64,000 nt of DNA from a virus (Duplodnaviria; Caudoviricetes), in IMG/VR virus record IMGVR_UViG_3300042542_006078. One strand, 5' to 3'. Both the position numbers and the translations under genes were made by a program. The notes beneath the pieces were generated by a model. That model did no database searches. It saw only the letters and a list, made by a program, of their open reading frames with translations, and had not been told where the DNA came from. This document shows, piece after piece, positions 8,328-64,000 of the stretch; the first letter of the stretch is position 1, and each line of letters opens with the position of its first letter.

Positions 8328-8399
8328 TATCTTTACCTCTTGCTTAAGAGAGTATCGTAGCAAAAATCAGAGAATTTTACAAGAAAAGAATGATGGAAT

Positions 8400-9049: not shown

Positions 9050-10693
9050 TTACTGGCAACTCTTACATTCAAGAATATTTCTTGCAAAAACTTGAGCCGC
9101 ATTTACAGACATCTGATAATATAAAGACTTAATTCCAAGTTTCCAAGCCTCTACCAATAAAGCATTTACATCCTTAGTTGGGACACTTGGGTGAATCATT
9201 AAATTCAAAGACTGACCCTGATCGATATATTGCTGTCTCTGTGCAGCCTGAATAATAATTTCTTTTGGACTAATTTCGGCAAAAGTCTTGAATACATCCT
9301 TTTCCTTTTCTGAAAGGAAATCAAGATGCTGGACACTTCCTCCGTTCATGAGGATGCTCTTCCAAACATCATCAGTGTCTTTGCCCTTTTCCTTCAATAA
9401 CTTCTCAAGTTCAACATTCTTAATCGTGAATTTGCCTTTCTGCAAATCCTTGATGTAATAATTTGTACGATGAGGCTCAATACCTTCTGAAACTTGGCCA
9501 AGAATAAATGCAGACGACTTGGTTGGAGCAATTGCCATCAAAGTTGTATTGCGACGACCATAGCCTTTGCAAACTTCTGGCTCACCATATTCCTGAGCCA
9601 ACTTTGCACTCGCAGCATATGCCTTTTCTTTGATATTCATAGCAATCTGCACATTTTCAAATTTGGCTTCCATGCTTTCCCAAGGAATCATCTTGCTTTG
9701 CAAATAACTGTGCCATCCTAGCCAGCCAATTCCCAAAGCACGATGTCTTTCTGCAAAACGAACAGGTCTTTCCATGAACTTGATATTCTTAGCCTTATCA
9801 ATGAACTCAGTCATCACAGCATCTAGAAGATACACCAATAGCTCAACAGCATCTGTATCTTTCCATTCATCATAGTAAAGAATATTCATACTACTGAGGT
9901 CGCAAACAAAAGATTCTTCTTCGTTGTTTGCCAAAAAAATCTCACAGCATAAGTTGCTATGTGTTATTTTCATTCCTTTATCTTTATAACAATCAGCAGT
10001 ATTATTGTTAGCATTGTCTGTAAAGATGATATATGGATATCCAAGATTAGCACGGGTTTCTAAAACCTTGGCCCAAATCTTACGCTTTTCTGAATCGCCA
10101 TCGACCATTTCTTGCATCCAGTAATCTGGTACGCACACACCATAAGAAAGGTCTTGAATTGGAAAGCCTTCTGTTCTTAATTGAAGAAATTCCATGATGT
10201 CAGGATGATCAATTGGAAGATAAGCTGCAAAGTTGCCACGGCGAGTCTTGCCCTGACTGACAACATTGATGAGATTATCAAAAGCTTGCATAAAATGTAC
10301 AGAACCAGAACTTTCGCCGTTCTGTTTGATTTTAGCGCCACGGGGTCTTAAGTTGCCAAAATATCCACTTGTTCCCCCTCCATGCTTAGTCATCATGGCG
10401 ACTTCAGACCAAGTGAATGCAATTGATTCCATAGAATCACTTATAAAAGACCCGAAACAAGAAATCGGCAATCCTCGATCATTGCCGAAGTTTGTCCAAA
10501 TCGGAGTGGAAAAGCTATACCAACCCTTTTTGAAATTGTCTTGGAAACGCTTTGCGAATCCCGGTTTGTTCAATATTTTTTCTGCTGCGTTGCAAATCTC
10601 TGAAACACGATCATCAACACTTTGACCATCGACGAGATAATCTCTTTCGAGAAAAATACGGGAAAGGTCGGTGAGCCATCTGTAATCTGACAT
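9050..10693 (-). CDS. nrdA: Ribonucleotide reductase class Ia alpha subunit (no ATP cone)
   Basis: STPIW, PISCF, GGGTSG, SNLCCEI (thiyl Cys), AIAPT, DQGQS, KSLYY, C-terminal CKSC. Confidence 0.95.
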   Translation of the reverse strand: MSDYRWLTDLSRIFLERDYLVDGQSVDDRVSEICNAAEKILNKPGFAKRFQDNFKKGWYSFSTPIWTNFGNDRGLPISCFGSFISDSMESIAFTWSEVAMMTKHGGGTSGYFGNLRPRGAKIKQNGESSGSVHFMQAFDNLINVVSQGKTRRGNFAAYLPIDHPDIMEFLQLRTEGFPIQDLSYGVCVPDYWMQEMVDGDSEKRKIWAKVLETRANLGYPYIIFTDNANNNTADCYKDKGMKITHSNLCCEIFLANNEEESFVCDLSSMNILYYDEWKDTDAVELLVYLLDAVMTEFIDKAKNIKFMERPVRFAERHRALGIGWLGWHSYLQSKMIPWESMEAKFENVQIAMNIKEKAYAASAKLAQEYGEPEVCKGYGRRNTTLMAIAPTKSSAFILGQVSEGIEPHRTNYYIKDLQKGKFTIKNVELEKLLKEKGKDTDDVWKSILMNGGSVQHLDFLSEKEKDVFKTFAEISPKEIIIQAAQRQQYIDQGQSLNLMIHPSVPTKDVNALLVEAWKLGIKSLYYQMSVNAAQVFARNILECKSCQ

Positions 10694-11667
10694 TAGAATA
10701 AATCCTCCGCTGTAAATGACTTGGTGAACTTGGAATAAGTGACAGGTTTCTTGTGAAAGAAATCAGTGTTCACTTCGGCATGAATTTCGTCTTCAAACCA
10801 TTTTAGGTTGATCAGTTTTTTCATATCAACATCAAAATGTTTCTTTGCGCCAATCATTTCAAGACTTTCATTGAAACGATGCTTGACGAATTCCTTTACC
10901 GAATCCTTGGCGAGAAATGATAATTCGCCATTTTCAAAAATCCAATCAACAATTTTTGATTCAGATTCATAAGCTTTGGCGCAGGCTCTTTGGAGCTTCT
11001 CATAAAAATCATCATTAAACCAATCTGGATATTCTTTTTTAATTTGTTTAATTATATAAACACCAAGAAGAGCATGAATCGCCTCTTCTTTTTGAGTAGC
11101 TTGCACAACATTGTCGATATCTTTCAAGCAATTCATGTGTTTATTGAAAGATTTGATGATCAAAAACTGAGAAAACAAACTTACATTCTCGATAAATATA
11201 CTGAACAATGCCAATGTAAGAGTGTATTTTTCGTTGCTATTATCTGAAGCGCCTTTCAGATACTTTGTAAGATAATCAACTCTACCTTGTATGACAGGAT
11301 TCTGGAGTAATTGATCGAATTCATTGTTCATCCCAAGAACTTCGAGAAGGTGGGAGTATGCATCGGCATGACGAACTTCTGATTCGCCAAATGTAACGCC
11401 AACTTGTTCAAATTCGGCCTTGGGAAATCGATCACCAAGTCTGGTCCAGAACTTCTTGACTGATATTTCAATCTGCGAGATGGCGAGCATTGCGTTCTTA
11501 AGAACACTTTTTTGAACATCGTTCAATTTAACATTGAAATCATGAATGTCAGAAATGAAGTTCCATTCACTCACAAGCCAATAGCTGTGATTGATTGCAT
11601 TCTTATATTCAATAATTTCAGGATACTCAAAAGGCTTAAATGCCACTCTTTTGTCGAAAATACTCAT
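10693..11667 (-). CDS. nrdB: Ribonucleotide reductase class Ia beta subunit
   Basis: FKPFEYP, ESEVRHADAY, FIENVSLFSQF and EEAIH di-iron ligands, C-terminal DFF...TY. Confidence 0.95.
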   Translation of the reverse strand: MSIFDKRVAFKPFEYPEIIEYKNAINHSYWLVSEWNFISDIHDFNVKLNDVQKSVLKNAMLAISQIEISVKKFWTRLGDRFPKAEFEQVGVTFGESEVRHADAYSHLLEVLGMNNEFDQLLQNPVIQGRVDYLTKYLKGASDNSNEKYTLTLALFSIFIENVSLFSQFLIIKSFNKHMNCLKDIDNVVQATQKEEAIHALLGVYIIKQIKKEYPDWFNDDFYEKLQRACAKAYESESKIVDWIFENGELSFLAKDSVKEFVKHRFNESLEMIGAKKHFDVDMKKLINLKWFEDEIHAEVNTDFFHKKPVTYSKFTKSFTAEDLF

Positions 11668-11756: not shown

Positions 11757-13820
11757 CTAAACAACCAATTTCGTGAACCCATTTTCGTGCATAAGTTTCA
11801 ATGTGTCAGCGGTTTGCAACATTCTGATTAAATCGTGATCGTGCGTGGTAACAAACACTTGTCTTTCTTCTGCCAATTCGCAAATCATATTATAAATGCC
11901 TTGAACTCCCAACGGGTCAACATTGGTGCTTACTTCATCTAAAAAAACTATAGATGGTATAGATCCTGAACTTAGCATCATGATGTGAGCGAAGCTTTGG
12001 CTGACAGCTAAGTTTAATCTTCTTCTCTGTCCTGTTGACATGGCATGATAAACATAAGGATTGCCATCAATAGGATTTCTTTCAATAATTTCATTTAATT
12101 CATTGTCAAACTTAAGCGTGATTCTATTGTCAATCAAAAACTGAAGCCAGTAGTTGATACGATTGTTGAGTTCTGGAATTACTCCATCAACAACCCACTT
12201 GCGAATACCATTGTCGCCAAAGCCTGTGATCCAGTAATCGTAATAAGGAAGTTCTGCTTCAAGATCTTTAACTTCTTTTTCTTTATCGGACACTTTTTCT
12301 ATCGCCTTGTTTAATTCTGTCTTGTCATTTTCAAGTATTTCCTTAAATGGAGTGTCGCCTTTTATCTCTTTTGCCTTGTCTTCAATTTGCTTTTTGAAAT
12401 TTTCAATCTTTTCCTGAAGCAACGCTTCGCTATTGTCAACTTTTGGTTCACGAACTTGAGATGATTTAACAAGTTCGTTTCTTAAGGAACTGAGTTCTTT
12501 ATCTAAGGCACTAATGTTTGAAACAAAATTATCGATAAACTTTTTTATTTTTTCTTGTTTCTCTTTGATGGAATCAGCCTTCTTTTGGACTTCTTTTCCG
12601 CTATCGACAATTTCCTTTAATTCATTATTAATTAGAACAATTTCAGAGTTCAACTTTTCAATATATTCGCTGAGATTTTCTTCGTTTATTTCGCCTTTGC
12701 ACTTATCACATTTTGTTCCCGGTATGTTTGATTTTAAGTTCTTAATCTCTTGTTCTTTAATTTGCCTGTTTGCAACGAGATTTTTTGCTTTCTTAGATAC
12801 TTCTTGATAATCTTCACCTACAATCTGGGCCTCTGTTTTAATTTCGTTTTCTTTGTTTCTGGCAAGAGCAAGTTTTTCTTCAGATTCTTTTTTAGACTTT
12901 TCCTTTTCAGGCATGATTTCGTTGATTTCTTTGATTTTTTCTTGTGCTTTTTGATAGGCCAACAATGCTGCGCCATTGTCTGACTGGCCTAGCATTTCTG
13001 TGAATTTCTGGCTACTTTTGATCAATATTTCAAGTTCATTCTTCTTGTCTTCCTTCCATTTGTTTTCCTTTTGTTTTGTTAAATCCAGCCTTCTAACTGC
13101 ATCATCTTTACTATTGATTAGCAGAGCATATTCTTTAGATTTGATATCAATTTTTGACTTAATTTCTTTTCTAAGATTCTTGGCATTTTCAGACCATTCT
13201 CTATAGATTCCAAGAGACAACATGTTCTCAACTATTTCTTTTTTCTGTTTGTTTTCGCATTCTAAAAAACAAGCTCTCTGATCATCTGTGAAAACAGACA
13301 TATTGATGAATGCTTCGTAAGAAAGGCCGATTATTTCTTCGATTTTTTTTTGAGTAAGAGACATTGTTCCCTGTGTGATTTCATTTTGTTTGTCCCAAAC
13401 TCCCTCTTTGCTTTCCCACAATCGAAGTGAATTTTTGGTGTCTTTGCCACCTTCTTTCCTAGTTCTAATGATTCTAAAATCATCGAAAATCAATTCCACT
13501 TTGGCATCTTTTCCTACTTTATTGTGTACCACATCATTTGCTCCGAGCTTTTCTGGTCTTTTTACCGTTTTGCCAAAAAGACCATAAGTGATAATTTCTT
13601 GTATGCTGCTTTTACCAGTACCATTACTGCTGACTTTCATTTCTTCTGATTGAACGATTGCATCGCCAATTAGATTTTTGGATTCAACCGATTTTGCGTC
13701 TTTATTTTCGCCACGAACAAGAACTATATTTTTGTATTTATCAAAATGCAGTTCTATGCCTTCGGGACCAAAAGGGAGAAAGTTGTATGCTGCTGCAAAC
13801 TTGAAGCGAAGATTCTTCAT
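11757..13820 (-). CDS. SbcC/Rad50/gp46-like SMC ATPase
   Basis: Walker A NGTGKSS, long coiled coil with CDKC zinc hook, signature MSTGQRRR, Walker B FLDEVSTNVD, TTH. Confidence 0.92.
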   Translation of the reverse strand: MKNLRFKFAAAYNFLPFGPEGIELHFDKYKNIVLVRGENKDAKSVESKNLIGDAIVQSEEMKVSSNGTGKSSIQEIITYGLFGKTVKRPEKLGANDVVHNKVGKDAKVELIFDDFRIIRTRKEGGKDTKNSLRLWESKEGVWDKQNEITQGTMSLTQKKIEEIIGLSYEAFINMSVFTDDQRACFLECENKQKKEIVENMLSLGIYREWSENAKNLRKEIKSKIDIKSKEYALLINSKDDAVRRLDLTKQKENKWKEDKKNELEILIKSSQKFTEMLGQSDNGAALLAYQKAQEKIKEINEIMPEKEKSKKESEEKLALARNKENEIKTEAQIVGEDYQEVSKKAKNLVANRQIKEQEIKNLKSNIPGTKCDKCKGEINEENLSEYIEKLNSEIVLINNELKEIVDSGKEVQKKADSIKEKQEKIKKFIDNFVSNISALDKELSSLRNELVKSSQVREPKVDNSEALLQEKIENFKKQIEDKAKEIKGDTPFKEILENDKTELNKAIEKVSDKEKEVKDLEAELPYYDYWITGFGDNGIRKWVVDGVIPELNNRINYWLQFLIDNRITLKFDNELNEIIERNPIDGNPYVYHAMSTGQRRRLNLAVSQSFAHIMMLSSGSIPSIVFLDEVSTNVDPLGVQGIYNMICELAEERQVFVTTHDHDLIRMLQTADTLKLMHENGFTKLVV

Positions 13821-13879
13821 GTTGTAATCCTGAAATTGACCGTAGATCTGGAAGACGGACTTTGTGCTTAATGTGAGCT

Positions 13880-13908
13880 ACTTTAACAGGATTTCAGGAC
13901 CAAGTCAA
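13880..13908 (-). promoter_or_regulatory. Putative sigma70 promoter for the SbcC-like gene
   Basis: TTGACT-17 nt-TAAAGT on the minus strand in the 94-bp gap upstream of the gene. Confidence 0.5.
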
Positions 13909-13914
13909 ATAAGA

Positions 13915-14637
13915 TTAATTTTCAGATTCTTGAGAGAGTCTAATATTCTTTACCAGTCTTCTCGACACACCAACTTTCTTGTTATGTGCGTATTTTTCAA
14001 ACAATTCTTTGTGTTTTTCGGAAAACAACAAGCTCTTGTTTTGGCACAGTTTTTTAAGTATTCCGGTTGGATGTATTGCAAGCTGTTCGATATCGTGAAA
14101 AATCAAATTATTTTTATTGTCTTTGAGGTCTGGTAAATTTATAAAATTATATTTGTTGTCTATAAAACTTATTTCAGATTCAAAAAATTTCAACATACAT
14201 TCTGTTTTGTTGTGATCTTTTAGGACGGCTGTCATATTGTGAACTGTGCCGTATTTCTTCCAAGAGATACTATTGCCGCCTACAAAACCGGGGTTTTTGT
14301 TTTTAGTCATCAACAAATTGTCTTCAATCATATCAAAAACTTCATCAATTGGTTTTTGAAACCAAACATCGGCATCGTAATAAACAAAATTTCCATCAAT
14401 TTCATTGGCCAATTTAGCAATCGTGTTAAGAGAAGCATTTCTGATTGTTGAATCTTTATTGCCTTCGTGAATGATTGCATCAAAGCTTTTTATTTTTTCT
14501 TTTGTGGCATAACTTAAGCCAAAATCTATGATTACGGGTTTGCTTTGTGTTTGGGCCAAATCACGCAATGAGGCAAGCCAAGAAATACCCCAAGGATTCC
14601 AATATTTTTCATTCAGCCCTGTTATGATGAAATTCAA
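13915..14637 (-). CDS. GT-A fold glycosyltransferase-like protein
   Basis: IIDFGLS and YYDADVWFQKPID (DxD) pattern as in GT8/GT77-like enzymes; TTG start. Confidence 0.55.
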   Translation of the reverse strand: MNFIITGLNEKYWNPWGISWLASLRDLAQTQSKPVIIDFGLSYATKEKIKSFDAIIHEGNKDSTIRNASLNTIAKLANEIDGNFVYYDADVWFQKPIDEVFDMIEDNLLMTKNKNPGFVGGNSISWKKYGTVHNMTAVLKDHNKTECMLKFFESEISFIDNKYNFINLPDLKDNKNNLIFHDIEQLAIHPTGILKKLCQNKSLLFSEKHKELFEKYAHNKKVGVSRRLVKNIRLSQESEN

Positions 14638-14640
14638 GTT

Positions 14641-15696
14641 TTACTCCGTTTTGATGCATATTTTTTCGCCTATTGCGAGAAGTTTTTTAAGGTCGAGGCC
14701 ATCGTGTCCAACCTGATCCGCATACTTAGCAAGCATTTCATTGCCTTTATATAGAATAGCTTTTGCGTCTTGAATAATATGTTCATCAATTAATTTTTTC
14801 TGCTGTTTGATTTCCAAGCTCGCAAGAGTCTTGTTTTCCATTATTTCTTTCTTGACATTTATCAAATCAGTAGCACCTATATTATCAACTTTAATCTGGA
14901 CATAGTTTCCTTCAAGTTGATATTTGTCTTTATCGGCATAATTGACTACAAGATGCTTAGGGCTGAAATTATTTTCGATGTATTCTTTTTCACACTTTTC
15001 CTGATCAAACAAAATGATGTGTTTAGTTTGGAAAGCTTCTCCAAAACTTAACTGCAAAGGCGATCCTATGTACTCAACTTTCTTGTTAACCCTTTGTTCG
15101 GCATGATAGTGCCCCAAAAATGTGTATTTGTAGTGATCGAAAAGTGATGCGCTGATGTTTACCATGTCGCCATCATGTTCAATTGTGACATCGCTGTGTT
15201 GATTTCCATGCAATACTGCGCCATCAAGAGCAAGGTGTCCAAGAGCATATTCCATCGTACTGTGAAGATTTTTTAATTGTTCAAGAGATTCAATTGGATT
15301 ATGAGTATAAGGAATAAAGTCCCAATTGTGTCCATCGATATCTATTCTTGATGGCTTGCCGATGACTGTGATGTTTGGCAAAACAGAGAGAGGCATAACG
15401 CTACTTATGTTTGTCTTGTCATTAAACCATAAGTCATGATTGCCAAGAAGTAAATAAACATGAAATTTGTTCTTTTTTGAGTATTCTGCAAATATTTCAA
15501 ATGCTTTTTGGTAAGTGTAAATTTCTATCTTTTGACGATCATGGAAAAGATCGCCTCCAAATAGAACATAATTAATTCCTTTTTCTATGGCAGTATCAAA
15601 AACCCATCTTAATGCCGTGAGGCAATCTTCAAGTCTTTGATTGCTTCTCTTATGGGGATGGATATGCAAATCGCTAAACAACAGTAACTTTGACAT
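14641..15696 (-). CDS. SbcD/Mre11/gp47-like metallophosphoesterase nuclease
   Basis: SDLH, GGDLFH, LGNHD, GHYH phosphoesterase motifs; start at ATG 15696 (MSKLLLF). Confidence 0.92.
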   Translation of the reverse strand: MSKLLLFSDLHIHPHKRSNQRLEDCLTALRWVFDTAIEKGINYVLFGGDLFHDRQKIEIYTYQKAFEIFAEYSKKNKFHVYLLLGNHDLWFNDKTNISSVMPLSVLPNITVIGKPSRIDIDGHNWDFIPYTHNPIESLEQLKNLHSTMEYALGHLALDGAVLHGNQHSDVTIEHDGDMVNISASLFDHYKYTFLGHYHAEQRVNKKVEYIGSPLQLSFGEAFQTKHIILFDQEKCEKEYIENNFSPKHLVVNYADKDKYQLEGNYVQIKVDNIGATDLINVKKEIMENKTLASLEIKQQKKLIDEHIIQDAKAILYKGNEMLAKYADQVGHDGLDLKKLLAIGEKICIKTE

Positions 15697-15840
15697 GTGG
15701 CTCTCCTTTATTTGGTATTCTGCTAAAAAACAAAGAAAAAGCAATAGCGAATAATCATTTGCCTCAGAAATGTGCCAACAAAGGGACAAATGAACCTGAT
15801 TTGTAAGCTAAAATTAAACAACTCGATGATAAATAATGCA

Positions 15841-17978: not shown

Positions 17979-19070
17979 ATGCAACTATCTAACGAACAGA
18001 AAGACATTGTCAGGAATATCCTGAAGTCTTTTGAAAGCAATCAAGTCATTACGATGGGTGGTTATGCTGGCACCGGGAAAAGCACTATCATTTCTACATT
18101 GAATCAAGCATTAAAAAACAAGGGTCTTGATTTTGCTGTGGGAGCATATACTGGCAAAGCAACTAATGTTCTAAGAAAAAAAGGTTTGAATGCAAATACA
18201 ATTCATAGCATGATATATCGACCCATGACTGATTCAAAAGGAGAAACTACTTGGAGTTTGATGAATCGTTATGAAATGCCAATTAGAATGGATGGTTTTA
18301 TAATCGATGAATCCAGCATGGTTTCCAAGGAAATCCACGATGACCTTTTATCTTTTGGAATACCAATCATTTATGTCGGAGATCATGGACAACTTGAGCC
18401 TATTGGAAGCAAGTTTAATTTAATGGAAGAGCCAATGTTTAGGCTTGAAACTGTTCACAGGAACGCTGGCGAGATAGCTCATTTTGCTGAACATCTAAGG
18501 AAAGGCAATCCTGCCAGAACATTTGAAACAACAAAATCTGTTCAAATAGTAGAAGATAGTGTTGTTGAAGATAAGCATTTGGCAGCAGTTGATCAAATCA
18601 TTGTAGCTTTCAACAAAACCAGAGTGAAATTAAATAATCGTGTCAGAAAAGAAAAAAAGATTGATTTTACATTTATTGCCAAAGGAGAAAAAATAATTTG
18701 CTTGAGAAATAACAGGCCTCTTGGTCTTTTCAATGGCATGCAAGGATATGTAACCAAAATACATAAAAATGAGAGAATAGACTTCACATCGGACGGACTT
18801 GGTTTCGGTCTTATCAAATACGATCCAGACCAATTCGGAAAAGAAACAAACCAATTTGAATTTAAGCAAGAGGCTAACCCTTTTGATTATGGGTATGCAA
18901 TTACTTGCCACAAGGCGCAAGGAGATCAATTTGGCAATGTAATTGTTTATGAGCAAAAATGTGAAAATTGGGACCATGTTAGATGGTCATATACTGCTGC
19001 AAGCAGAGCTATCAACGGATTGATATGGGTTAAATCCGCAGAGTTCCATCCTCATTACCTATTGCCTTAA
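17979..19070 (+). CDS. SF1 helicase, Dda/RecD2-like
   Basis: GYAGTGKST, IIDESSMV, VGDHGQLEP, YAITCHKAQG, YTAASRA. Confidence 0.92.
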   Translation: MQLSNEQKDIVRNILKSFESNQVITMGGYAGTGKSTIISTLNQALKNKGLDFAVGAYTGKATNVLRKKGLNANTIHSMIYRPMTDSKGETTWSLMNRYEMPIRMDGFIIDESSMVSKEIHDDLLSFGIPIIYVGDHGQLEPIGSKFNLMEEPMFRLETVHRNAGEIAHFAEHLRKGNPARTFETTKSVQIVEDSVVEDKHLAAVDQIIVAFNKTRVKLNNRVRKEKKIDFTFIAKGEKIICLRNNRPLGLFNGMQGYVTKIHKNERIDFTSDGLGFGLIKYDPDQFGKETNQFEFKQEANPFDYGYAITCHKAQGDQFGNVIVYEQKCENWDHVRWSYTAASRAINGLIWVKSAEFHPHYLLP

Positions 19071-50062: not shown

Positions 50063-53000
50063 TTAGCTGGATGCGCTTTCTTTCCACTTCTCCCAGAACC
50101 TTGTGTTACTAATCATTTCTTGATAAGTGTGCTTGGCAAATCGCCTGTTCAAACGACCTTTTCTAATTCCTGATATTCTTACCACTATTTCAACTTGCTT
50201 GTTCTTCAGGTCTTCTCCAATAGCCTCAACAACCAAAGAATTCTTGGAAATGTAAGCCCCAACCAAAACTGGTGATGAACCAACTGCGCTTGTCACCTTG
50301 ATAGTGTCTTTTTCACAAACCTGTATGAATCTGTCATCAAGGAATGTCAAAATTGTATCACGATCAAGGCCACTTCCTCCAACCTTTACTACCATAATGT
50401 CTTCAAACCTTACCTCTGGCATCTCAACGCAAATTAGTTCGACATATTCCTCATAACCTTGTGATGTTACAACTGGAAGAATCGCATACTTGTCTCCCTG
50501 TGATCCTTGTGATCCCTGTGATCCCTGTGATCCCTGTGCGCCCGCAGAGCCTTGAAGACCACCAGAAGAACCTTGGTAGCCAGATTGTCCCTGTGCGCCC
50601 GCAGAGCCTTGAGACCCACTAAACCCATTTTGACCTTGATAACCAATATTCCCCGGATTTCCCTGATATCCAACAGCGGGAGGCATAACAAGAATATTCA
50701 AATTTTGATTATTTGAAGGAAGAGCTAAAGAACCAGAAACCAAACCAACAGGAACTACCCAATAACCACCAGCAGAAGATGGAAAATTGGTAACTTGATA
50801 AACATAAATTATACTTCCGCTACCATTTTCTTGAATATAAATGTAAGAGCCATAAGTTCCTCCTACAACAGGATAAATGAAAAGATTACCAATAATACTG
50901 TTTAAGTTATTACCAAAAACATCTAAGTTATCAATGTAAATTTGAGAGACTGCGGATGGATCAGAAGGATGGTTAAATCTCAAATATCCTTGACCGGGAT
51001 CAGAGTTTGTAGTCGATGTGCTAAACTGATACTTGATTCCACCCTTGTCTCCAAGACTACCCTGATTGCCCTGATTTCCCTGATTGCCTTGCGATCCTTG
51101 AAATCCTTGTAAACCAATTGAACCTTTAGGAGCAAACATGATGCTCAATGACTGACCATTTGTGGGAACTGTACCAGATAATCCAGAAACAGGGATCTTG
51201 TAATATCCAGCAGCAACTATAATTGTTCCAACTACAGTAAATGTGACTATAGTATTGCCAGCATCATTTCCAGCAACATAAATGTATCCAGCATATCCAT
51301 CTAAAATACTATAATTCAGATCAAATGTTGTAATCCATCCAGCTTGATTAATGCTATTTGCATCTGTATTGCTAATGTATATGAATAAAATACTTGGAAT
51401 GGAAGCATTGCTAAATCTAACATATCCACTACCGGGATTTGTATCGCTTACTAAATTGCTAAATGTATACTTTACGCCGCCTTTATCACCAATTCCTTGA
51501 TTGCCCTGATTTCCTTGAGCGCCCTGAAATCCTTGAAATCCAATATTACCTTGATATCCTTGAAGTCCTTGAAGACCTTGATGGCCTTGGAATCCATCAG
51601 CAGGGCCTTGGAATCCTTGATTTCCTTGGTTGCCTTGAGCGCCTTGGAATCCATCAGGAGTTCCTTGATAACCTTGCTGACCTTGGTTTCCTTGATTACC
51701 TTGTTCTCCCTGATGACCTTGCTGACCTTGATTGCCCTGATTTCCCTGATGTCCTTGATATCCGTCAGCAGGGCCTTGGAATCCTTGATTGCCTTGGTTT
51801 CCTTGGTGACCCTGATTTCCTTGATTGCCTTGGTTTCCTTGGTGACCCTGATTTCCTTGATTGCCTTGGAATCCTTGATCGCCTTGGTTTCCTTGGCGAC
51901 CTTGATTGCCTTGGTTTCCCTGATTGCCTTGGTTTCCTTGACGACCTTGGTTTCCTTGGTTTCCCTGATTGCCTTGGTTTCCTTGACGACCTTGGTTTCC
52001 TTGACGACCTTGGTTTCCTTGATACCCTTGATAGCCACCACCTTGATATCCTTGTGATCCTTGATATCCTTGTTGTCCTTGATAACCCTGATATCCTTGT
52101 TGTCCTTGATATCCTTGTTGTCCTTGATATCCTTGTTGTCCTTGATAACCCTGATATCCTTGTGATCCTTGGTATCCTTGTGATCCTTGGTTTCCTTGGT
52201 TTCCTTGGTTGCCTTGGTTTCCTTGACTTCCCTGATTTCCCTGTTGTCCTTGAAGTCCTTGATAACCTTGATATCCTTGTTGTCCTTGGTATCCTTGGTA
52301 TGCTTGATAGCCTTGATATCCTTGAAAACCCGATGATCCCGATGATCCTGCTAGACCTTGGTATCCAAGATCTCCTTGATAACCAATGTTTCCTTGATTT
52401 CCCTGATTTCCTTGTTGCCCTTGATATCCAATTAGTCCTTGAAGACCAATAAAACCTTGGTTTCCTTGGTTTCCTTGGTTTCCTTGGTTTCCTTGATTTC
52501 CTTGATTTCCTTGGATGCCTTGTGGTCCTGCATTTCCTTGATATCCTTGTTCTCCAAGAATGCCTTGTGGTCCTAAAGGACCAGCAATTCCTTGGGGTCC
52601 AGTTATACCTGTCTGACCTATAAGACCCTGTTCTCCCTGTTCGCCTTGCTCTCCCTGAGGGCCTTGACTTCCTGTTGAGCCTTGTCTTCCTTGATTTCCT
52701 TGCGATCCTTGGTTTCCTTGTGTTCCTTGATATCCAATATTTCCTTGATAACCAATTAGCCCTTGATTTCCTTGTTGTCCTTGGTTTCCTTGGTTTCCTT
52801 GTGATCCTTGATATCCAATATCTCCTTGATATCCTTGATCTCCCTGATTTCCTTGTCTGCCCTGATTTCCTTGGTTACCTTGATTGCCTTGGCGACCTTG
52901 ATTTCCTTGCGATCCTTGCAGGCCAATATCTCCTTGATATCCTTGTTCGCCTTGATTTCCTTGTTCGCCCTGATATCCTTGATCTCCTTGTCTTCCTTGC

Positions 53001-53938
53001 CTTCCCTGTCTTCCTTGGTTGCCTTGCGATCCCTGCGATCCTGTATCGCCTTGTGATCCAGTTAATCCCTGAATGCCTTGATATCCTTGTAAACCAAAAT
53101 CACCTTGATTTCCTTGTAAACCAATTTGGCCTTGATAGCCAATTTGGCCTTGATGGCCTTGGCGACCTTGATTTCCCTGTCGTCCTTGGTTTCCTTGAAC
53201 TCCCTGTAGACCTAAAATTCCTTGGTATCCTTGTCTTCCTTGGAATCCCTGAAGTCCTGTTGTTCCTTGATTGCCTTGTAATCCTGTTCCAATAGAGCCC
53301 TGTAGGCCTTGAACTCCTGTTATTCCTTGGTTTCCTTGACTGCCAGATGTTCCTTGGAATCCTTGATTGCCTCTTCCTCCTTGCAATCCTTGAAGTCCAG
53401 TCGCTCCTTGAACACCTTGTGCGCCATCTCCTCCTTGGTTGCCCTGACTACCTTGAAATCCTGCTCCAATTACACCTTGGAAACCTTGATTGCCTTGCTC
53501 GCCCTGATATCCAGCACCTTGAGTTCCTTGATTGCCTTGATTTCCTTGAATGCCTTGTAGACCTTGATTTCCTTGTTCTCCTTGCTCTCCTTGGTATCCT
53601 GCTGGTGTTCCTTGATAACCAACAATTCCTTGCAATCCTTGAAGACCAACTACACCTTGGCGACCTTGATTTCCTTGGTTTCCTTGTGATCCTTGTACTG
53701 TGCTTGGCGAACCTTGGGCTCCTTGTGATCCTGCTCTTCCCTGTTGGCCTTGTAGACCTTGTGATCCGGGTGTGCCTTGCGAACCTTGAGGGCCTGTTAT
53801 ATCTTGTCCAATATTTGCAGAAACAACAAAATCACGCAAATCTTGTGCTGAAATGCCACCTTGATTGTTATCGGCAAATATGCACAATAACTCCTCTTCG
53901 GTCCTGAAAGTTCCAGATTGGTTGCATTGATTTGCCAT
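50063..53938 (-). CDS. Collagen-like fibre protein (Gly-X-Gln), with two inserted globular domains
   Basis: Long G-X-Q triplet tract; two GDKGG[VI]KY-F domains; C-terminal [11 protein letters not shown] domain. Confidence 0.85.
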   Translation of the reverse strand: MANQCNQSGTFRTEEELLCIFADNNQGGISAQDLRDFVVSANIGQDITGPQGSQGTPGSQGLQGQQGRAGSQGAQGSPSTVQGSQGNQGNQGRQGVVGLQGLQGIVGYQGTPAGYQGEQGEQGNQGLQGIQGNQGNQGTQGAGYQGEQGNQGFQGVIGAGFQGSQGNQGGDGAQGVQGATGLQGLQGGRGNQGFQGTSGSQGNQGITGVQGLQGSIGTGLQGNQGTTGLQGFQGRQGYQGILGLQGVQGNQGRQGNQGRQGHQGQIGYQGQIGLQGNQGDFGLQGYQGIQGLTGSQGDTGSQGSQGNQGRQGRQGRQGDQGYQGEQGNQGEQGYQGDIGLQGSQGNQGRQGNQGNQGNQGRQGNQGDQGYQGDIGYQGSQGNQGNQGQQGNQGLIGYQGNIGYQGTQGNQGSQGNQGRQGSTGSQGPQGEQGEQGEQGLIGQTGITGPQGIAGPLGPQGILGEQGYQGNAGPQGIQGNQGNQGNQGNQGNQGNQGFIGLQGLIGYQGQQGNQGNQGNIGYQGDLGYQGLAGSSGSSGFQGYQGYQAYQGYQGQQGYQGYQGLQGQQGNQGSQGNQGNQGNQGNQGSQGYQGSQGYQGYQGQQGYQGQQGYQGQQGYQGYQGQQGYQGSQGYQGGGYQGYQGNQGRQGNQGRQGNQGNQGNQGNQGRQGNQGNQGNQGNQGRQGNQGDQGFQGNQGNQGHQGNQGNQGNQGHQGNQGNQGFQGPADGYQGHQGNQGNQGQQGHQGEQGNQGNQGQQGYQGTPDGFQGAQGNQGNQGFQGPADGFQGHQGLQGLQGYQGNIGFQGFQGAQGNQGNQGIGDKGGVKYTFSNLVSDTNPGSGYVRFSNASIPSILFIYISNTDANSINQAGWITTFDLNYSILDGYAGYIYVAGNDAGNTIVTFTVVGTIIVAAGYYKIPVSGLSGTVPTNGQSLSIMFAPKGSIGLQGFQGSQGNQGNQGNQGSLGDKGGIKYQFSTSTTNSDPGQGYLRFNHPSDPSAVSQIYIDNLDVFGNNLNSIIGNLFIYPVVGGTYGSYIYIQENGSGSIIYVYQVTNFPSSAGGYWVVPVGLVSGSLALPSNNQNLNILVMPPAVGYQGNPGNIGYQGQNGFSGSQGSAGAQGQSGYQGSSGGLQGSAGAQGSQGSQGSQGSQGDKYAILPVVTSQGYEEYVELICVEMPEVRFEDIMVVKVGGSGLDRDTILTFLDDRFIQVCEKDTIKVTSAVGSSPVLVGAYISKNSLVVEAIGEDLKNKQVEIVVRISGIRKGRLNRRFAKHTYQEMISNTRFWEKWKESASS

Positions 53939-53952
53939 CTTAGATTCCCTGT

Positions 53953-56289
53953 TTATTTCCAGCTATTCCAGAAATTGTTGTTCTTAATCATTTCTTCGTA
54001 AGTGTGAGTAAAGAATCGTCCTTTGACACCAATTCTTATTCCAGATAATCTCAATATTACTTTTACTTTTTCATTTTCAAGAAAATCACCATGAGCCTCG
54101 ATTAATACTTTGTCGCCATTAACATCTACTCCTGCCGATATAGGTTTTGATGTTACTATTCCAGTAACAATAATTGAGTCTTGTTCACAAACCTTGATAA
54201 ACTTTTCTTCAATTTGATGACTTTCCTTGATTACATTAGTTCCATTTCCACCTATATGAATAATCATGATGTCTTCAAATCTTACTTCTGGCATCTCGAC
54301 ACATGACAAAGCAACATACTCTTCATTGTCTTCGTAGCGAAGAGTAATAATTGCATTTTTCACACCAGCCGGACCTTGCGATCCTGTTGGCCCCTGATAT
54401 CCTGCTCGTCCTTGGCGACCTTGTACTCCCGCAATTCCTTGTCTTCCTTGAATTCCTTGTCTTCCTTGGTGTCCCTGATTTCCTTGTAATCCTTGTAATC
54501 CTTGACGGCCTTGAAATCCTTGACGGCCCTGATTGCCTTGATAGCCTTGGTTGCCTTGGTTGCCTTGATTTCCTTGATTTCCTTGATTTCCTTGATTTCC
54601 TTGACGACCCTGATTTCCTTGACGACCCTGATTTCCTTGATTTCCTTGACGGCCTTGATTTCCTTGATTGCCTTGATTTCCTTGATTTCCTTGACGACCT
54701 TGGTTTCCCTGATTTCCCTGATTTCCTTGATTTCCTTGGAATCCTTGATTTCCTTGATTTCCCTGATTTCCCTGATTTCCTTGGTTGCCTTGGTTGCCTT
54801 GGTTACCTTGGTTACCTTGGTTGCCTTGGTGGCCTTGATTTCCCTGCTCTCCTTGACGACCTTGGTTTCCTTGATTGCCTTGGTTACCTTGATTGCCTTG
54901 GCGACCTTGATTGCCTTGATGGCCTTGGTTGCCTTGGTTCCCCTGATTTCCTTGGTTGCCTTGACGACCTTGATTACCTTGACGACCTTGATGGCCTTGG
55001 TTGCCTTGGTTTCCTTGGTTTCCTTGATATCCTTGTGGACCTTGATTTCCTTGACGGCCTTGATTTCCTTGATTTCCTTGACGGCCTTGGTTGCCTTGGT
55101 TTCCTTGGTATCCTTGTGGACCTTGATTACCTTGATTTCCTTGGCGACCTTGATTACCTTGATTTCCTTGGCGACCTTGATTGCCTTGGCTACCTTGGTT
55201 TCCAATAAATCCTTGAAGACCAATAAGACCTTGGTTGCCTTGATTTCCTTGATTGCCTTGTATTCCTTGTCTTCCTTGATATCCTTGTCTTCCTTGATGC
55301 CCTTGTCTTCCTTGATATCCTTGATCTCCCTGACTTCCTTGTGGTCCAGCCGATCCAACAACTCCTTGTCTTCCTTGAGATCCTTGTTGTCCCAAAACGC
55401 CTTGACGGCCTTGGCTACCTTGTATTCCTTGTCTACCTTGAAAACCCTGACTACCTTGTCTTCCTTGGTGTCCTTGATATCCCTGTTCGCCTTGATTTCC
55501 TTGGTTTCCTTGTGAGCCTTGATTTCCTTGGTTTCCTTGTGAGCCTTGAAATCCTGCGCCCTGAAAACCTTGATATCCTCCAACTGTCCCTTGAAATCCA
55601 ATTGATCCTTGTCTTCCTTGTGATCCTTGATTGCCCTGAGATCCAGTTCCTTGATAACCTTGAAAACCTCTGAATCCGGCAGAACCTTGTCTTCCTTGAT
55701 TGCCTTGTACTCCTTGCGCTCCTTTTCCTCCTAATGAACCTTGAAGTCCTTGAAGACCTTGTAGTCCCTGAGCGCCATCATATCCCTGATATCCTTGATT
55801 TCCTTGGAATCCAGCACCTTGGACACCTTGATTTCCTTGTTGTCCTTGTACTCCAATATTTCCTTGAAGACCTTGAAGACCTTGAAGACCAAATCCTTGA
55901 AGACCTTGATTTCCTTGCTCTCCCTGTTCGCCCTGATATCCAGCAGGAGTGCCTTGAAAACCAAGAATTCCTTGAAGGCCTTGAAGGCCAACTATTCCTT
56001 GGTTTCCTTGTATACCTTGGTTTCCTTGATTTCCTTGTGGACCCGGCACAATACTTGGATCACCTTGGGCTCCTTGTGATCCTGCTCTTCCCTGTTGGCC
56101 TTGCAGGCCTTGCGATCCGTGGGCACCTTGTGATCCTTGTGGACCTGTTATATCTTGTCCGACATTCGCAGAAACAACAAAATCACGCAAATCTTGCGCT
56201 GAAATACCGCCTTGGTTGTTATCAGCAAATATGCACAATAACTCCTCTTCGGTTCTTAAAGTTCCAGATTGATTACATTGATTTGCCAT
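53953..56289 (-). CDS. Collagen-like fibre protein (Gly-X-Gln), paralog
   Basis: Near-identical N-terminus [10 protein letters not shown]..., (GNQ/GRQ)n tract, same [12 protein letters not shown]-terminal domain. Confidence 0.85.
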
Positions 56290-57884: not shown

Positions 57885-58826
57885 GTGCGTCATTTCCTCT
57901 CCATATCCGACTTGTCAAAAGATGAAATTGAATTAATTTTAGACATTGCAAACGAAATCGAAAGAAATTGGTCTTTTTGTCGCAACATGAACAACAAGTG
58001 CATAAGTAGTTTTTTTGCCGAGCCGTCAACAAGAACAAGATTTAGTTTTGAAAGAGCTATGCATTGGTTGGGTGGTCGTGTTATCACGGCTGCTGACGCT
58101 TCATCAAGCAGTAGCTTGACAAAAGGCGAAAGCTTGAAAGACACTTTCAGAACTCTTGGCCAATATTCCGATGCTATTGTAATGCGACACCCAGATCAAA
58201 AATGGCCTGAAATAGCAAGAAGTTATTCAAGAGTTCCTGTTATAAACGCTGGTAGTGGTTCTGGAGAACATCCAACACAAGCTCTTCTTGACCTTCACAC
58301 TATTAAACAAAAGTGGAATGACATTTCTGGACTCAAGGTTCTTCTCTGCGGCGATCTTAGAAATGGAAGGACAATTCACAGCCTTATTGAAATACTTCAT
58401 CTTTATAAATGTAACATTTTTTATTGTGCTGCGACCGATTATAAAAATTGTGACTTGTCTATACCAGAAAAATATTTAGAAAAAATTCCTTGCCGTAATG
58501 TTGAAATATCAGATGCCAATGATATTCTTCCTGAAATTGATGTCATTTATATGACAAGAATACAGAAAGAAAGGTTTAAGGGAGTTTGCGATAATCTTGA
58601 TTTTTTCAAAATAACCAAAGAAAATATTGGAAGAGTAAAGAAAAATGCGGCTATTCTTCATCCATTGCCTAGAAATGAGGAAATTAGTGAAGACATAGAT
58701 GATGATCCTCGTGCTGATTATCATGAAAGACAAGTAAGAAATGGTCTTTATATTCGCACGGCTTTGCTTAATTATCTTCTTTATCCAACTCCTATGCATA
58801 GGCCATCTTGTGATGGAATTAATTAA
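57885..58826 (+). CDS. pyrB: Aspartate carbamoyltransferase catalytic subunit
   Basis: EPSTRTRFSFE, KGESLKDT, INAGSG..EHPTQALLD, GDLRNGRT, TRIQKER, HPLPR, RQVRNG. Confidence 0.96.
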   Translation: MRHFLSISDLSKDEIELILDIANEIERNWSFCRNMNNKCISSFFAEPSTRTRFSFERAMHWLGGRVITAADASSSSSLTKGESLKDTFRTLGQYSDAIVMRHPDQKWPEIARSYSRVPVINAGSGSGEHPTQALLDLHTIKQKWNDISGLKVLLCGDLRNGRTIHSLIEILHLYKCNIFYCAATDYKNCDLSIPEKYLEKIPCRNVEISDANDILPEIDVIYMTRIQKERFKGVCDNLDFFKITKENIGRVKKNAAILHPLPRNEEISEDIDDDPRADYHERQVRNGLYIRTALLNYLLYPTPMHRPSCDGIN

Positions 58827-61004: not shown

Positions 61005-61892
61005 ATGAAAATTGCAATGTGCCCACTAGTAAGCAGAGATCTTCCAAAAGCTATCAGAGCAACCAATTCTTGTAGAAATCAATTTCCAACTGAACAATTT
61101 CAAGTTGAAACAGTTGCAATTGTTAACTCAAAGAATCAAGAATTCATAGATGAGTTCTGCTCATGGTGCGAATCTGAACAAGTAAAATATGTCATTACTG
61201 AATCAAATGGAACACCAAGCAGAGGAAAAAATAGCGTTCTTCAGTTTCTTAGAGACTCGGACTATGACGGAGTAAGCATGACAGATGGAGATGATTTAGT
61301 CTATCCAACTGGAGCTTTGCAAATTGAAAGACATCTTCTTCACCATCCAACCACAGATGTTTTGATAGTTAAGCCTTCTGATCAAGTTACAAACCATGAA
61401 TCATATGGAAGTGTTCAAATTAAAGAAGGAAACTATGCTGTTTGTTGGGGTATGAATATTGTTAAGTTGGGATATACTTATGGTCCCGGTAAAAGCGAAA
61501 TATTTAATTCAGGACATTTTGCAGCAAGAAATTTAGGAGGACATGTTTTTTATAGCAAGAAGGTTGCACAACTTGTTCAATATGATGAAGAACAATTGTT
61601 GGGAGAAGACTTGCTTTTAGAATTTAATCTTCTCAAGCTTCATCAAGAAAGAAAAATATGTTTTTGGTTAAGTTTTGCAAGTGATGTACAGATGCTAGAC
61701 AGAACTGAGCAAGAAAGTATTCAATATACAAAGAATGGAACAGATGGGGCTCAATCTTTTGAAAGGTTAATTCAAAAAGTGAGAGAGATATTGCCTGAAG
61801 ACAGAAGTTCATTTGATGAATTGCCCGTAGAGTTCCCAGAATTGTTATTTTCACATGGCGAAAAAATTGAATGGTTGAAGCAAGTTTTTTGA
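61005..61892 (+). CDS. GT-A fold glycosyltransferase-like protein
   Basis: ESNGTPSRGKNS, DGDD (DxD), GEDLL; start MKIAMC at 61005. Confidence 0.65.
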   Translation: MKIAMCPLVSRDLPKAIRATNSCRNQFPTEQFQVETVAIVNSKNQEFIDEFCSWCESEQVKYVITESNGTPSRGKNSVLQFLRDSDYDGVSMTDGDDLVYPTGALQIERHLLHHPTTDVLIVKPSDQVTNHESYGSVQIKEGNYAVCWGMNIVKLGYTYGPGKSEIFNSGHFAARNLGGHVFYSKKVAQLVQYDEEQLLGEDLLLEFNLLKLHQERKICFWLSFASDVQMLDRTEQESIQYTKNGTDGAQSFERLIQKVREILPEDRSSFDELPVEFPELLFSHGEKIEWLKQVF

Positions 61893-61899
61893 AAATTGA

Positions 61900-61928
61900 T
61901 TGCAAAAAAGAATCTAAGTGATTACAAT
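61900..61928 (+). promoter_or_regulatory. Putative sigma70 promoter driving the non-coding region
   Basis: TTGCAA (61900-05)-17 nt-TACAAT (61923-28). Confidence 0.65.
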
Positions 61929-61934
61929 AAGAAA

Positions 61935-62447
61935 TGGCTAAGGGTAATTCTCACTCATTCCGCTCACAAGGTGTTATGAGTTAAGCCCAAAGCAAAGACA
62001 GAAGAAGGTTTCGCACTTAAAGACTTTCATCGTGATTGTCGCCTTTAATGTCTTTGTTGTCAAACCTGCGAGGCCCTTACCAAGGGTGGGTCTTTGTAGT
62101 TGTTCTACAACGAATGCTTTAACGGGAAGCATTGTACTCGCAGCAGCAGAGGTCAAGCCGGATAGAAATGATGCTGACTCTCAAGAAAAACCCCTGTAGT
62201 TTGTTTTGCAAAAAGCAAATGAGAAATGGAAAATTCTTGAGCTATTCGGTTTTAGGTTTGCTGCAAATAAAAGTGCGCCATCTGACTCAATCCCAAGAAG
62301 TTATTGCTGGAGTAAATAGGTTTAGTAAACAAGAATATGGCTTAAACGCCAAAAAATTGCTCTACTAAACAAGTTTACTCAATATCTCACTTTTAATGTG
62401 ATATATACAGCAATAACCATTTGGGTCAGCATCCCGTTCTAGTTTTT
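61935..62447 (+). ncRNA. Large structured non-coding RNA candidate (about 510 nt), class unknown
   Basis: No convincing ORF; upstream promoter; more than a dozen nested helices whose G-U pairs favour the plus strand; T run at 62443-47. Details under findings. Confidence 0.65.
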
Positions 62448-62507
62448 GATTGTAAATAAAAAAAACAAATTACCTAAATTAACAAATTTTTGCATAATTT
62501 AACATGA

Positions 62508-62536
62508 TTGACCTAACTGCTTTTTTCGGCTATAAC
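62508..62536 (+). promoter_or_regulatory. Putative sigma70 promoter for the polymerase gene
   Basis: TTGACC (62508-13)-17 nt-TATAAC (62531-36). Confidence 0.7.
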
Positions 62537-62597
62537 CTGACGAAGAATTAGCCTTCACTCACAGAGTGACGGAAAATGGCCTACAAGCTGGTGATTC

Positions 62598-63935
62598 ATG
62601 TATTTTGACTCTTTGTCCAAGTTGCTCTGTCAAATCGAGCGTAAGCCCCTTTTCTTGCGATTTAATCCCACTCCTTTTGATTTCACGGACAAGGATTCAG
62701 TCAATGAGATGCAATTCTTTCTTCCTGATGGTGTCACATTTCAAATTTTGCTCAAGGATGAATCTTTGCCTTTGGTTTTGAGTATGTTGCAGTTGTCTGT
62801 TTTTTCTGGCGACAACAAAGTCTTCGCATGGGATTGGAAATCATTTATTTCACATGTTCTTGCAAAGACTGGCAAGTTATATTCTATTGAATCATCTGTT
62901 GTTGATCTTAAGATTTTAGAAAGTTACAACGGAATCAAGAAATCATGTCCTGAGACATTTGTTGAGTGTTTTAACAGAATAAAGTATTTGGTATCATCTG
63001 GTCTATGGAAAGACTGTGAAAATATTTACAAGAAGATTCATTTGCCTTTGATGACAAATGTCATTCCTTATTTGGAAACAGTAGGCATTCTTGACTTGAA
63101 TGCTGGCAAGAAGGTTCATGCTCATTATGAGATTGATGGTCAGGAGAATGGCAGATTAAGATGTCACAATGCTTTTAAGAATGGTTTTGTGCCACATGCA
63201 ATGGGATCGGATATCAAGGAGAAGTTGAAGCCTGTCGGCTATGATTCTCTTTTCATGGCTTTTGATTACAAGGGCATGGAAGCGTTTGTTCTTGCCTATT
63301 TGAGCAAAGACGAAAGGTTGATGAGTTTTTGTCAGGAAGAGGACATTTATGCTTCTTTGGCAAAGTCATTATTTGGATCGAATTCTGAAAAAATTGATCG
63401 TGAATTGGTGAAAAAATGTTTTTTGCCGGTTATATATGGACAGTCGGCCCGTTCTCTTTCTTTGCGTTGCGGAATGGCTGCTGATGTCGCAGAAGGCGTT
63501 GTGGAACGAATTAGTTCTTTGTTCAATACTGCGCTTTCATTCGTTGCTGATTGTGAAGAAAAAGTAAAACAAAATGGATTTGCCAAAGATGTTTTTGGTA
63601 AAAGAAGAAACAACTTTGAGTTAGGCAAGGAATATTTAGCCAGAAACTTTGCTGTGCAATCACCCGCATCAACGATATGTCTTGAGAAACTTATCAATCT
63701 TCATATTTCCATACAAAACTTAAATCAAAGCTTGAAGGATAAGGCTCAAATTTCTTATACTGTTCATGACGGTTATGTTTTGTATGTTACGAAGGATAAT
63801 TGGAAACAAGTTTACAAGAGAAGTATGGAAGCATTGTGCGGAGAATCCGAGCTTTGTCCCGGTCTGCGACTGAAGGTTTCATGTCGTGGAGGGAGAAACC
63901 TGAATGACCTGAAAATGATTAAAGATCGAAAGTGA
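62598..63935 (+). CDS. Divergent family A DNA polymerase, apparently lacking the thumb
   Basis: NGRL, motif A FDYKGMEA, motif B RELVKKCFLPVIYG, GKRR, NFAVQSPAS, motif C TVHDG. Confidence 0.85.
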   Translation: MYFDSLSKLLCQIERKPLFLRFNPTPFDFTDKDSVNEMQFFLPDGVTFQILLKDESLPLVLSMLQLSVFSGDNKVFAWDWKSFISHVLAKTGKLYSIESSVVDLKILESYNGIKKSCPETFVECFNRIKYLVSSGLWKDCENIYKKIHLPLMTNVIPYLETVGILDLNAGKKVHAHYEIDGQENGRLRCHNAFKNGFVPHAMGSDIKEKLKPVGYDSLFMAFDYKGMEAFVLAYLSKDERLMSFCQEEDIYASLAKSLFGSNSEKIDRELVKKCFLPVIYGQSARSLSLRCGMAADVAEGVVERISSLFNTALSFVADCEEKVKQNGFAKDVFGKRRNNFELGKEYLARNFAVQSPASTICLEKLINLHISIQNLNQSLKDKAQISYTVHDGYVLYVTKDNWKQVYKRSMEALCGESELCPGLRLKVSCRGGRNLNDLKMIKDRK

Positions 63936-63943
63936 AGGAAAAA

Positions 63944-64000
63944 ATGATTGAGATTGTTCACAATTTTCCGATAACAGAAGAAGAATTTTTGGACCTTGAC
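63944..64000 (+). CDS. Start of next gene (3'-truncated by window)
   Basis: SD AAGGA, then MIEIVHNFPITEEEFLDLD. Confidence 0.5.
   Translation, partial: MIEIVHNFPITEEEFLDLD

Follow-up and report, generated by a model that had tools for sequence, protein, structure and literature searches.

A thumbless family A DNA polymerase in huge phages: domain architecture, conserved active site, gene context and a possible accessory role

The polymerase gene and its features

We analyzed a stretch of 64,000 nucleotides (nt), here called the window, from a virus of the Caudoviricetes (Duplodnaviria), IMG/VR record IMGVR_UViG_3300042542_006078, with regard to a gene for a family A DNA polymerase (PolA) that lacks the thumb domain. 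The gene is located close to the last position of the window, and its domains and motifs as well as the beginning of the gene downstream are listed in Table 1. A protein with 100% identity was also found on independent metagenome contigs. Contig L007 agrees with window positions 61800-64000 at 99.7% identity and runs on beyond the end of the window. The downstream gene, of which the window contains only 57 nt, could be read there in full (protein P0122, 183 residues, L007:3467-4018).

Table 1. The thumbless polymerase gene, its predicted domains and motifs, and the start of the gene downstream (residue numbers are those of the phage protein unless stated otherwise).
Feature	Position in the window	Strand	Basis or remark
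Thumbless family A DNA polymerase gene (P0001), 445 residues	62598..63935	+	GGTGA ribosome-binding site 4 nt before ATG
Residues 1-135: DEDD-exonuclease-like domain, reduced by about 60 residues relative to Klenow and lacking the catalytic carboxylates	62598..63002	+	Fold matches, no Pfam exonuclease match, column counts
Residues 136-171: long connecting helix IHLPLMTNVIPYLETVGILD (compare Pol I EMPLVPVLSRIERNGVKID) and 4-residue junction LNAG	63003..63110	+	Model, alignment, anchors
Residues 172-445: palm and fingers, corresponding to Pol I 654-928	63111..63932	+	hhalign probability 97.7%, E 1.9e-12; Taq E 7e-13
Motif A, residues 219-232, FMAFDYKGMEAFVL: catalytic D223, steric-gate E228, F230 for R712	63252..63293	+	
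Motif B (O-helix), residues 268-281, RELVKKCFLPVIYG: R268, K272, L276 for F762, Y280-G281	63399..63440	+	
Motif C, residues 389-393, VHDGY: H390, catalytic D391, G392 for E883	63762..63776	+	
First 19 codons of the gene of about 183 residues downstream (P0122, resembling sigma region 2), truncated where the window ends	63944..64000	+	Full gene and DnaB-like helicase read from L007

Absence of the thumb

The thumb provides most of the grip of a family A polymerase on duplex DNA. In Escherichia coli Pol I 104 residues separate the motif anchors NGVKID (543-548) and GRVH (653), compared to 4 residues (LNAG, 167-170) between the anchors TVGILD (161-166) and KKVH (171) of the phage polymerase. The junction that replaces the thumb has equal length in all sampled homologs. 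The Pfam profile DNA_pol_A (PF00476) matches residues 169-435 with its positions 103-379 of 381 (E 5.3e-30, 105 bits at a cut-off of 34.3), and the first approximately 100 profile positions, which model the thumb, are left without a counterpart in the protein. Pairwise alignments begin in the same place: residue 171 is paired with residue 653 of E. coli Pol I, and residue 172 with residue 559 of Taq polymerase (scores are given in Table 1). A MAFFT alignment of the family together with the Klenow fragment placed the exonuclease region against the thumb; motif anchors and structure were used instead.

A model of the polymerase was calculated with AlphaFold2 from 59 homologs (mean predicted local distance difference test score, pLDDT, of 93.4; predicted template modeling score, pTM, of 0.92). 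It consists of a beta-alpha domain (residues 1-135), a single long helix (136-162), palm strands (164-190), and normal fingers and palm thereafter. A thumb-like helical hairpin is present nowhere in this model. With VIA-align residues 1-439 could be superposed onto Klenow residues 334-928 (1d9d) with Z 26.2 and a root-mean-square deviation of 3.2, where 419 of 601 residues were aligned and about 180 Klenow residues were left unmatched. The shortfall of 160 residues compared to Klenow is composed of approximately 100 thumb residues and approximately 60 residues of the exonuclease domain. An earlier, sequence-only reading of the window had suggested the loss of the thumb and had named a superposition onto Klenow or T7 polymerase as a check. 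Both the residue counts and the profile match bear out this suggestion, and in the superposition palm and fingers fit and the thumb stays unmatched. A normal thumb elsewhere in the protein, which that reading had considered as a possible objection, was found neither in the model nor in the profile match. The deletion of the thumb is exact and common to the whole family.

Among the structures compared by VIA-align the A-family DNA polymerases were matched with Z 22-28 (28.2 for human Pol nu), and single-subunit RNA polymerases with Z 12-13 only. Foldseek concurs with this result. As the fold is nearer to DNA polymerases, and as the steric-gate residue E228 is invariant in the family, the protein does not present itself as a T7-like single-subunit RNA polymerase.

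Conservation of the active site

Residue conservation was read from an alignment of 59 sequences with identities to the query down to 45%. The following residues (Pol I equivalents in brackets) are invariant or nearly so: R186 (R668), D223 (D705), the steric gate E228 (E710), R268 (R754), K272 (K758), Y280 (Y766), G281 (G767), N350 (N845), Q354 (Q849), H390 (H881) and D391 (D882). Other positions differ from Pol I throughout the alignment. The equivalent of E883, G392 in the query, is Gly in 52 of the 59 sequences and Ser in the other 7, by which HDE becomes HDG. The equivalent of F762 (L276) is Leu in every sequence, and Phe and Pro likewise replace N761 and G763 throughout, giving an O-helix with FLP for NFG. 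Tyr or Phe takes the place of R841 across the family, and the position of R712, which is F230 in the query, is mostly occupied by Phe or Tyr. The alignment to Pol I and the 59 homologs thus agree with the earlier motif readings in full, i.e. with the retained catalytic Asp, steric-gate Glu, R/K/YG and HD as well as with the changes to HDG, Phe and Leu. Judged by this alignment the departures in the active site are fixed family traits and not drift.

Because the complete set of catalytic and primer-terminus-binding residues is conserved, the enzyme would be an active, template-directed polymerase with specificity for deoxynucleoside triphosphates (dNTPs). The invariant steric-gate Glu and the similarity of the active site to Pol I speak for an ordinary template-directed DNA polymerase. 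The protein could also be a catalytically dead scaffold that keeps the polymerase fold, as E883, the thumb and the exonuclease residues have been lost. We consider this very improbable, given that no variation is seen across more than 55% sequence divergence in both metal-binding Asp residues, in the dNTP-binding Arg, Lys and Tyr, or in the primer-terminus contacts formed by R668, N845, Q849 and H881.

The substitutions themselves permit a different interpretation. An FLP O-helix, the change of R841 to Tyr and the HDG motif might retune the site for specialised substrates, that is for translesion, modified-nucleotide, RNA-templated or template-independent synthesis. This would be in agreement with their invariance in the family, and with the fact that the proofreading-free repair polymerases nu and theta are among the top fold matches. 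The gene neighborhoods also contain a dCMP deaminase and many methyl- and glycosyltransferases. On the other hand, the similarity to Klenow is about equal to that to Pol nu, the neighboring transferases show no link to DNA modification, and the retention of the steric-gate Glu and of Y766 makes the use of ribonucleoside triphosphates unlikely. On balance specialised substrates seem to us an unlikely explanation, although it is the least unlikely of the alternatives to the accessory role proposed below.

The N-terminal domain alone resembles DEDD exonucleases by fold (ExnV1 Z 11.2, RNase D Z 10.6, Rrp6 Z 10.5), and no Pfam exonuclease profile matches the 445-residue polymerase. The exonuclease positions were assigned by eye from the motif alignment and the secondary structure of the model. 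In the 59 homologs D355 is mostly replaced by N or Q, and D424 by F, L or I; YxxxD is missing from the Exo III helix, which has L, M or F at the position of D501. The equivalent of E357 is Thr in the query, with Glu kept in most relatives. With a DEDD fold but without acidic residues at the positions of D355, D424 and D501, the domain corresponds to the degenerate exonuclease that had been supposed before. The loss of these carboxylates argues that the polymerase cannot proofread.

Size and occurrence of the family

A word-indexed search resulted in 195 homologs with lengths of 399-487 residues on contigs of up to 513 kb, and an exhaustive profile search in 247 clusters at 50% identity (E≤1e-30). 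The best 150 of these 247 clusters are nearly all 400-460 residues long and match the profile from end to end. For the family as a whole, lengths of 420-450 residues are found almost throughout, on phage contigs of up to 595 kb. Among deposited phage genomes the top match is the 595-kb uncultured phage LR756511 with 33% identity. Decay of the gene in homologs had been named as a finding that would speak against the sequence-only reading; 247 full-length clusters with fixed catalytic residues were found instead, and judged by these homologs the gene is under strong purifying selection and is not decaying.

Contigs from a marine metatranscriptome match two 265-nt pieces of the gene at approximately 94-96% identity; their source is a relative of the phage, and a carry-over of DNA is possible, so that we do not take them as a sign of expression. 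At least 12 studies of the years 2017-2024 on lakes and freshwater yielded metagenomes with DNA nearly identical to window positions 61900-64000 (91-100% of the sampled words), and because of this the phage carrying the window DNA is regarded as widespread in lakes. Some of these runs may be the origin of the assembly itself. In one related 146-kb record (IMGVR_UViG_3300045125_000119; L065:5869-7250) the genes for the polymerase, the sigma-like protein and the helicase are broken into short open reading frames under genetic code 11. The polymerase frame comprises 451 codons if its nine in-frame TGA codons are read through, and TGA is probably recoded in this phage.

Gene neighborhood and the small downstream protein

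The polymerase gene is followed by a gene of about 185 codons and by a gene for a DnaB-like helicase of about 510 residues in about 60 of 61 viral loci, in which the identity of the polymerases ranges from 31 to 100%. The small gene overlaps the polymerase gene or starts within approximately 25 nt of it, and the helicase gene follows 0-2 kb further on. Genes for a gp32-type protein that binds single-stranded DNA (SSB) and for RecA/UvsX are found several kb past the helicase in related loci. Polymerase gene and small gene are parted in one locus only, and the interval between small gene and helicase gene often contains extra genes.

Searches with P0122 against Pfam, PHROGs and PDB sequences gave nothing significant. 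Its model is all-helical (pLDDT 86), and more than 20 of the best 50 VIA matches are sigma factor region 2, with Z values of only 6-8, which does not settle the matter for a helical bundle. The look-alikes in the ESM Atlas include 23 viral Sigma70_r2 clusters at 0.95, and the Pfam profile Sigma70_r2 itself matches just 2 of 39 members of the P0122 family (E 0.055). A further hint arises from the disordered but conserved tail SLSEFEFLH (SLSEF(D/E)(Y/F)L in the family). T4 gp55 ends in SLDFLYEAND, a similar acidic-hydrophobic tail that binds the clamp, and has a similar length (183 residues in P0122 compared to 185), whereas an hhalign comparison of both proteins was negative. From model and tail together we take P0122, with moderate confidence, for a probable gp55-like phage sigma factor and not for a substitute for the thumb. 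The sequence-only reading had conjectured a specialised nucleotidyltransferase which might depend on a partner to bind its substrate; the small neighbor resembles a sigma factor more than a DNA clamp. A prediction of the complex of PolA and P0122, with both supplied as alignments, yielded ipSAE scores of 0.00 and 0.02, which speaks neither for nor against binding.

A thumb supplied in trans was also considered and rejected: each related genome has one open reading frame (ORF) matching the PolA profile, none matches at profile positions 1-100, and P0122 is unlike a thumb.

The gene order recalls the staphylococcal cassette chromosome SCCmec, in which the A-family polymerase CCPol together with a "middle protein" (MP) makes DNA primers de novo beside a helicase (Bebel et al. 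2020, PMC7581432; Rice 2023, PMC10061031). The phage polymerase could accordingly be an initiator or primase-type enzyme, and polymerase, small protein and helicase an origin-priming module like CCPol-MP-Cch2. Besides the common order of the three genes, the near-constant pairing of the first two genes favors such a module, as does the stronger conservation of the small protein (62% identity to LR756511, compared to 33% for the polymerase). While MP is a binder of single-stranded DNA with an oligonucleotide/oligosaccharide-binding fold (OB-fold), P0122 is all-helical with sigma region 2 as its best folds, and an OB-fold partner downstream is not seen. Moreover the relatives already possess a DnaG-type primase, and to judge by the papers CCPol has retained its thumb. 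A priming module therefore appears rather improbable to us.

The polymerase gene is preceded by a geneless gap of about 700 nt (window 61893-62597), and most related loci likewise have a gap there, of 400-750 nt. Rfam identified no family in the gap 5' of the polymerase gene. Two freshwater metatranscriptomes from different studies each contain one contig of 205-220 nt with 100% identity, starting at position 61974 or 61975 (61974-62194). By analogy to Pol I, which extends RNA II at the ColE1 origin, the thumbless polymerase might extend an RNA primer at the replication origin of the phage, a speculation to which we assign a low probability. If it were true, the loss of the thumb could admit a bulky structured RNA-DNA hybrid that is unfit for the normal grip of Pol I. 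The putative upstream RNA, the polymerase, the sigma-like factor and the helicase would then form an autonomous cassette for origin firing in huge phages.

Other replication enzymes in relatives

Other polymerases were sought in six large relatives of the window phage. All six have one PolA match each, in the short form (ORF of 430-456 residues), and in none of them does a separate ORF match the thumb part of the Pfam PolA profile. PolB was not found in the six relatives. DnaE is present in five of them, and in four, all IMG/VR relatives, it is split into two genes. In LR756511 it is unsplit (ORF of 1183 residues). The split genes (G003:C1:126583-136727 (L072); also in G004, G005 and G006) encode approximately 470 and 900-950 residues and are 5-10 kb apart; the break lies inside the Pfam domain DNA_pol3_alpha (positions 2-98 and 100-259), and both halves are open frames. 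An ORF for a DnaG-type primase of 340-390 residues with Zn-ribbon and Toprim occurs in five of eight records. Sliding clamp profiles (PF02916, PF00712) had no match in the eight records, but the gp45 model matched no control genome either, so that this result is uninformative.

By these profile matches the clade is equipped with helicase, primase and C-family polymerase, and the thumbless PolA comes on top of these. The suggestion of the sequence-only reading that the enzyme is non-replicative fits with the DnaE-type polymerase, the DnaB-like helicase and the DnaG-like primase of the relatives.

One could also regard the thumbless PolA as the main replicase, with a clamp or the helicase lending it processivity in trans. 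Its gene is part of the core replication operon beside the helicase gene, the DnaE of most relatives is split through the catalytic region and could be secondary, and in one genome (G002) no second polymerase was seen. However, an enzyme without proofreading, thumb and HDE would be poorly suited for the accurate copying of 400-600 kb, and DnaE is conserved in its split form, both parts being open frames, and is undivided in LR756511. A role as main replicase is, in our estimation, quite improbable.

A possible accessory role

Taken together, we lean, by a little more than even chances, towards a distributive accessory polymerase for short patches in a T4-like recombination-dependent system, with DnaE as the main polymerase. 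Bulk synthesis of phage DNA would most likely be carried out by the DnaE-type (family C) polymerase together with the DnaB-like helicase and the DnaG-like primase. Without the grip of a thumb on the primer-template duplex the PolA is expected to bind DNA weakly and to add only few nucleotides per binding event. In work of Minnick and colleagues from 1996, Klenow without the tip of the thumb reportedly stayed active, with strongly lower DNA affinity, processivity and frameshift fidelity. From weak binding and few nucleotides per event a short-patch role would follow, such as the filling of gaps after primer removal, the extension of primers, D-loops or R-loops, or repair. The architecture, the conserved active site, the lost exonuclease residues, the gene context and the further replication enzymes of relatives are observations; that the enzyme is active and distributive, and on which substrate it acts, we infer.

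Three observations weigh against this proposal. First, every member has Gly or Ser in place of E883, a residue that helps in catalysis in Pol I, and the activity could be low or altered. Second, G002 (533 kb, CheckV completeness 100%) is without a DnaE or PolB match by profile, for DnaE also by protein. One must keep in mind that G002 is a trimmed "provirus" record which ends 18 kb past the PolA gene, and we did not count it as an absence of DnaE. Third, a flap endonuclease (PF02739, T4 RNaseH_C) was not found in the relatives, where divergent genes may be missed; owing to this, a complete Pol I-like pathway for primer removal is not evident.

The window contains T4-like genes for recombination and nucleotide metabolism, namely a Rad50/Mre11-like pair (11757-15789), a RecD/Dda-like helicase (17979-19070), aspartate carbamoyltransferase (57885-58826, plus strand), CTP synthase (6687-8363, minus strand) and both subunits of ribonucleotide reductase (9050-11667, minus strand). 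The latter four genes amount to an unusually full pyrimidine supply. Two proteins with collagen triple-helix repeats (1291 and 778 residues; Pfam Collagen E 1e-117 and 3e-86) are encoded on the minus strand at 50063-56289 and are probably virion fibers or decoration. The gene orientation turns from minus to plus at approximately 56.5 kb, which coincides with the minimum of the cumulative GC skew of the window.

Significance

In the "right hand" of family A polymerases the thumb counts as a core element that is required for DNA binding, processivity and frameshift fidelity. A family of approximately 247 clusters from lake and marine phages, with genomes of up to approximately 600 kb, that has long been thumbless and has kept its catalytic residues fixed represents a ready-made natural experiment on the function of the thumb. 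It also bears on the division of labor among polymerases in huge phages with a DnaE-based replisome. In addition, a compact 50-kDa Pol I core free of proofreading may be of interest to enzyme engineers.

Comparison with known polymerases

Klenow, Taq and Bst Pol I have the same palm and fingers fold, the same three motifs and the steric-gate Glu in common with the huge-phage polymerase. The latter differs by the missing thumb and 5' nuclease domain, by a reduced and inactive exonuclease domain, and by HDG for HDE, Leu for F762 and Tyr for R841. With CCPol-MP-Cch2 it shares the crippled N-terminal domain in addition to the gene order, but its helicase is DnaB-like and not Cch2.

The reclassification of PolA into 19 subfamilies in 2023 includes disrupted and extended thumbs and mentions no thumbless form (PMC10201439). 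From 14 phages (155-190 kb) Yutin et al. 2024 reported divPolA1, with a truncated thumb, an inactivated exonuclease and conserved palm residues; its gene heads a conserved block of replication genes, and a regular polymerase is encoded as well (PMC11348598). An inference like the one made here has already been published for divPolA1 (PMC11348598). The same study reported divPolA2 of barbaviruses, in which the N-terminal globular domain is novel and the gene context varies, and which may act as an RNA polymerase (PMC11348598). As in the huge phages, divPolA2 is an extra PolA without a recognisable thumb beside a regular polymerase. In contrast to it, the N-terminus of the huge-phage enzyme is exonuclease-like, and its structure is nearer to DNA than to RNA polymerases (Z 22-28 compared to 12-13).

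For divPolA1 the comparison was made with a single member, encoded by gene 1 in Flavobacterium phage immuto_3-5A (MW353176). Both proteins have a truncated thumb, a dead exonuclease and an active-looking palm, and they are of nearly equal length (441 compared to 445 residues). In the immuto protein the thumb is cut at the same place and the exonuclease residues are replaced; 21 residues are left between the anchors GLRI and IIYTSY, compared to 4 in the huge-phage polymerase. The active sites differ: F762 is kept, YD stands for HD in motif C and His is found at the steric gate of the immuto protein, where the huge-phage polymerase has Leu, HD and Glu. The gene context is alike in that a second polymerase is present (DnaE in five of the six relatives) and that DnaB, gp32 and RecA are encoded downstream. 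The immuto block consists of two small genes, SSB, RecA, a 5'-3' exonuclease and DnaB. Its small genes are unrelated to P0122, and a 5'-3' exonuclease was not found in the huge-phage relatives.

A hidden Markov model of the huge-phage family scores the immuto protein with 14.9 bits, compared to 59.1 bits for E. coli Pol I. Between the immuto protein and the huge-phage polymerase BLASTP gave no significant match, and hhalign a probability of 57%. By these sequence comparisons with one published member the huge-phage enzyme appears to be a distinct and much larger lineage that shares the architecture and context of divPolA1. The thumb-truncated architecture is far more widespread than the 14 mid-sized divPolA1 phages, and its origin is probably either repeated or ancient. 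The architecture as such has been known since divPolA1 in 2024; new are the huge-phage lineage, its complete deletion of the thumb and its own fixed substitutions.

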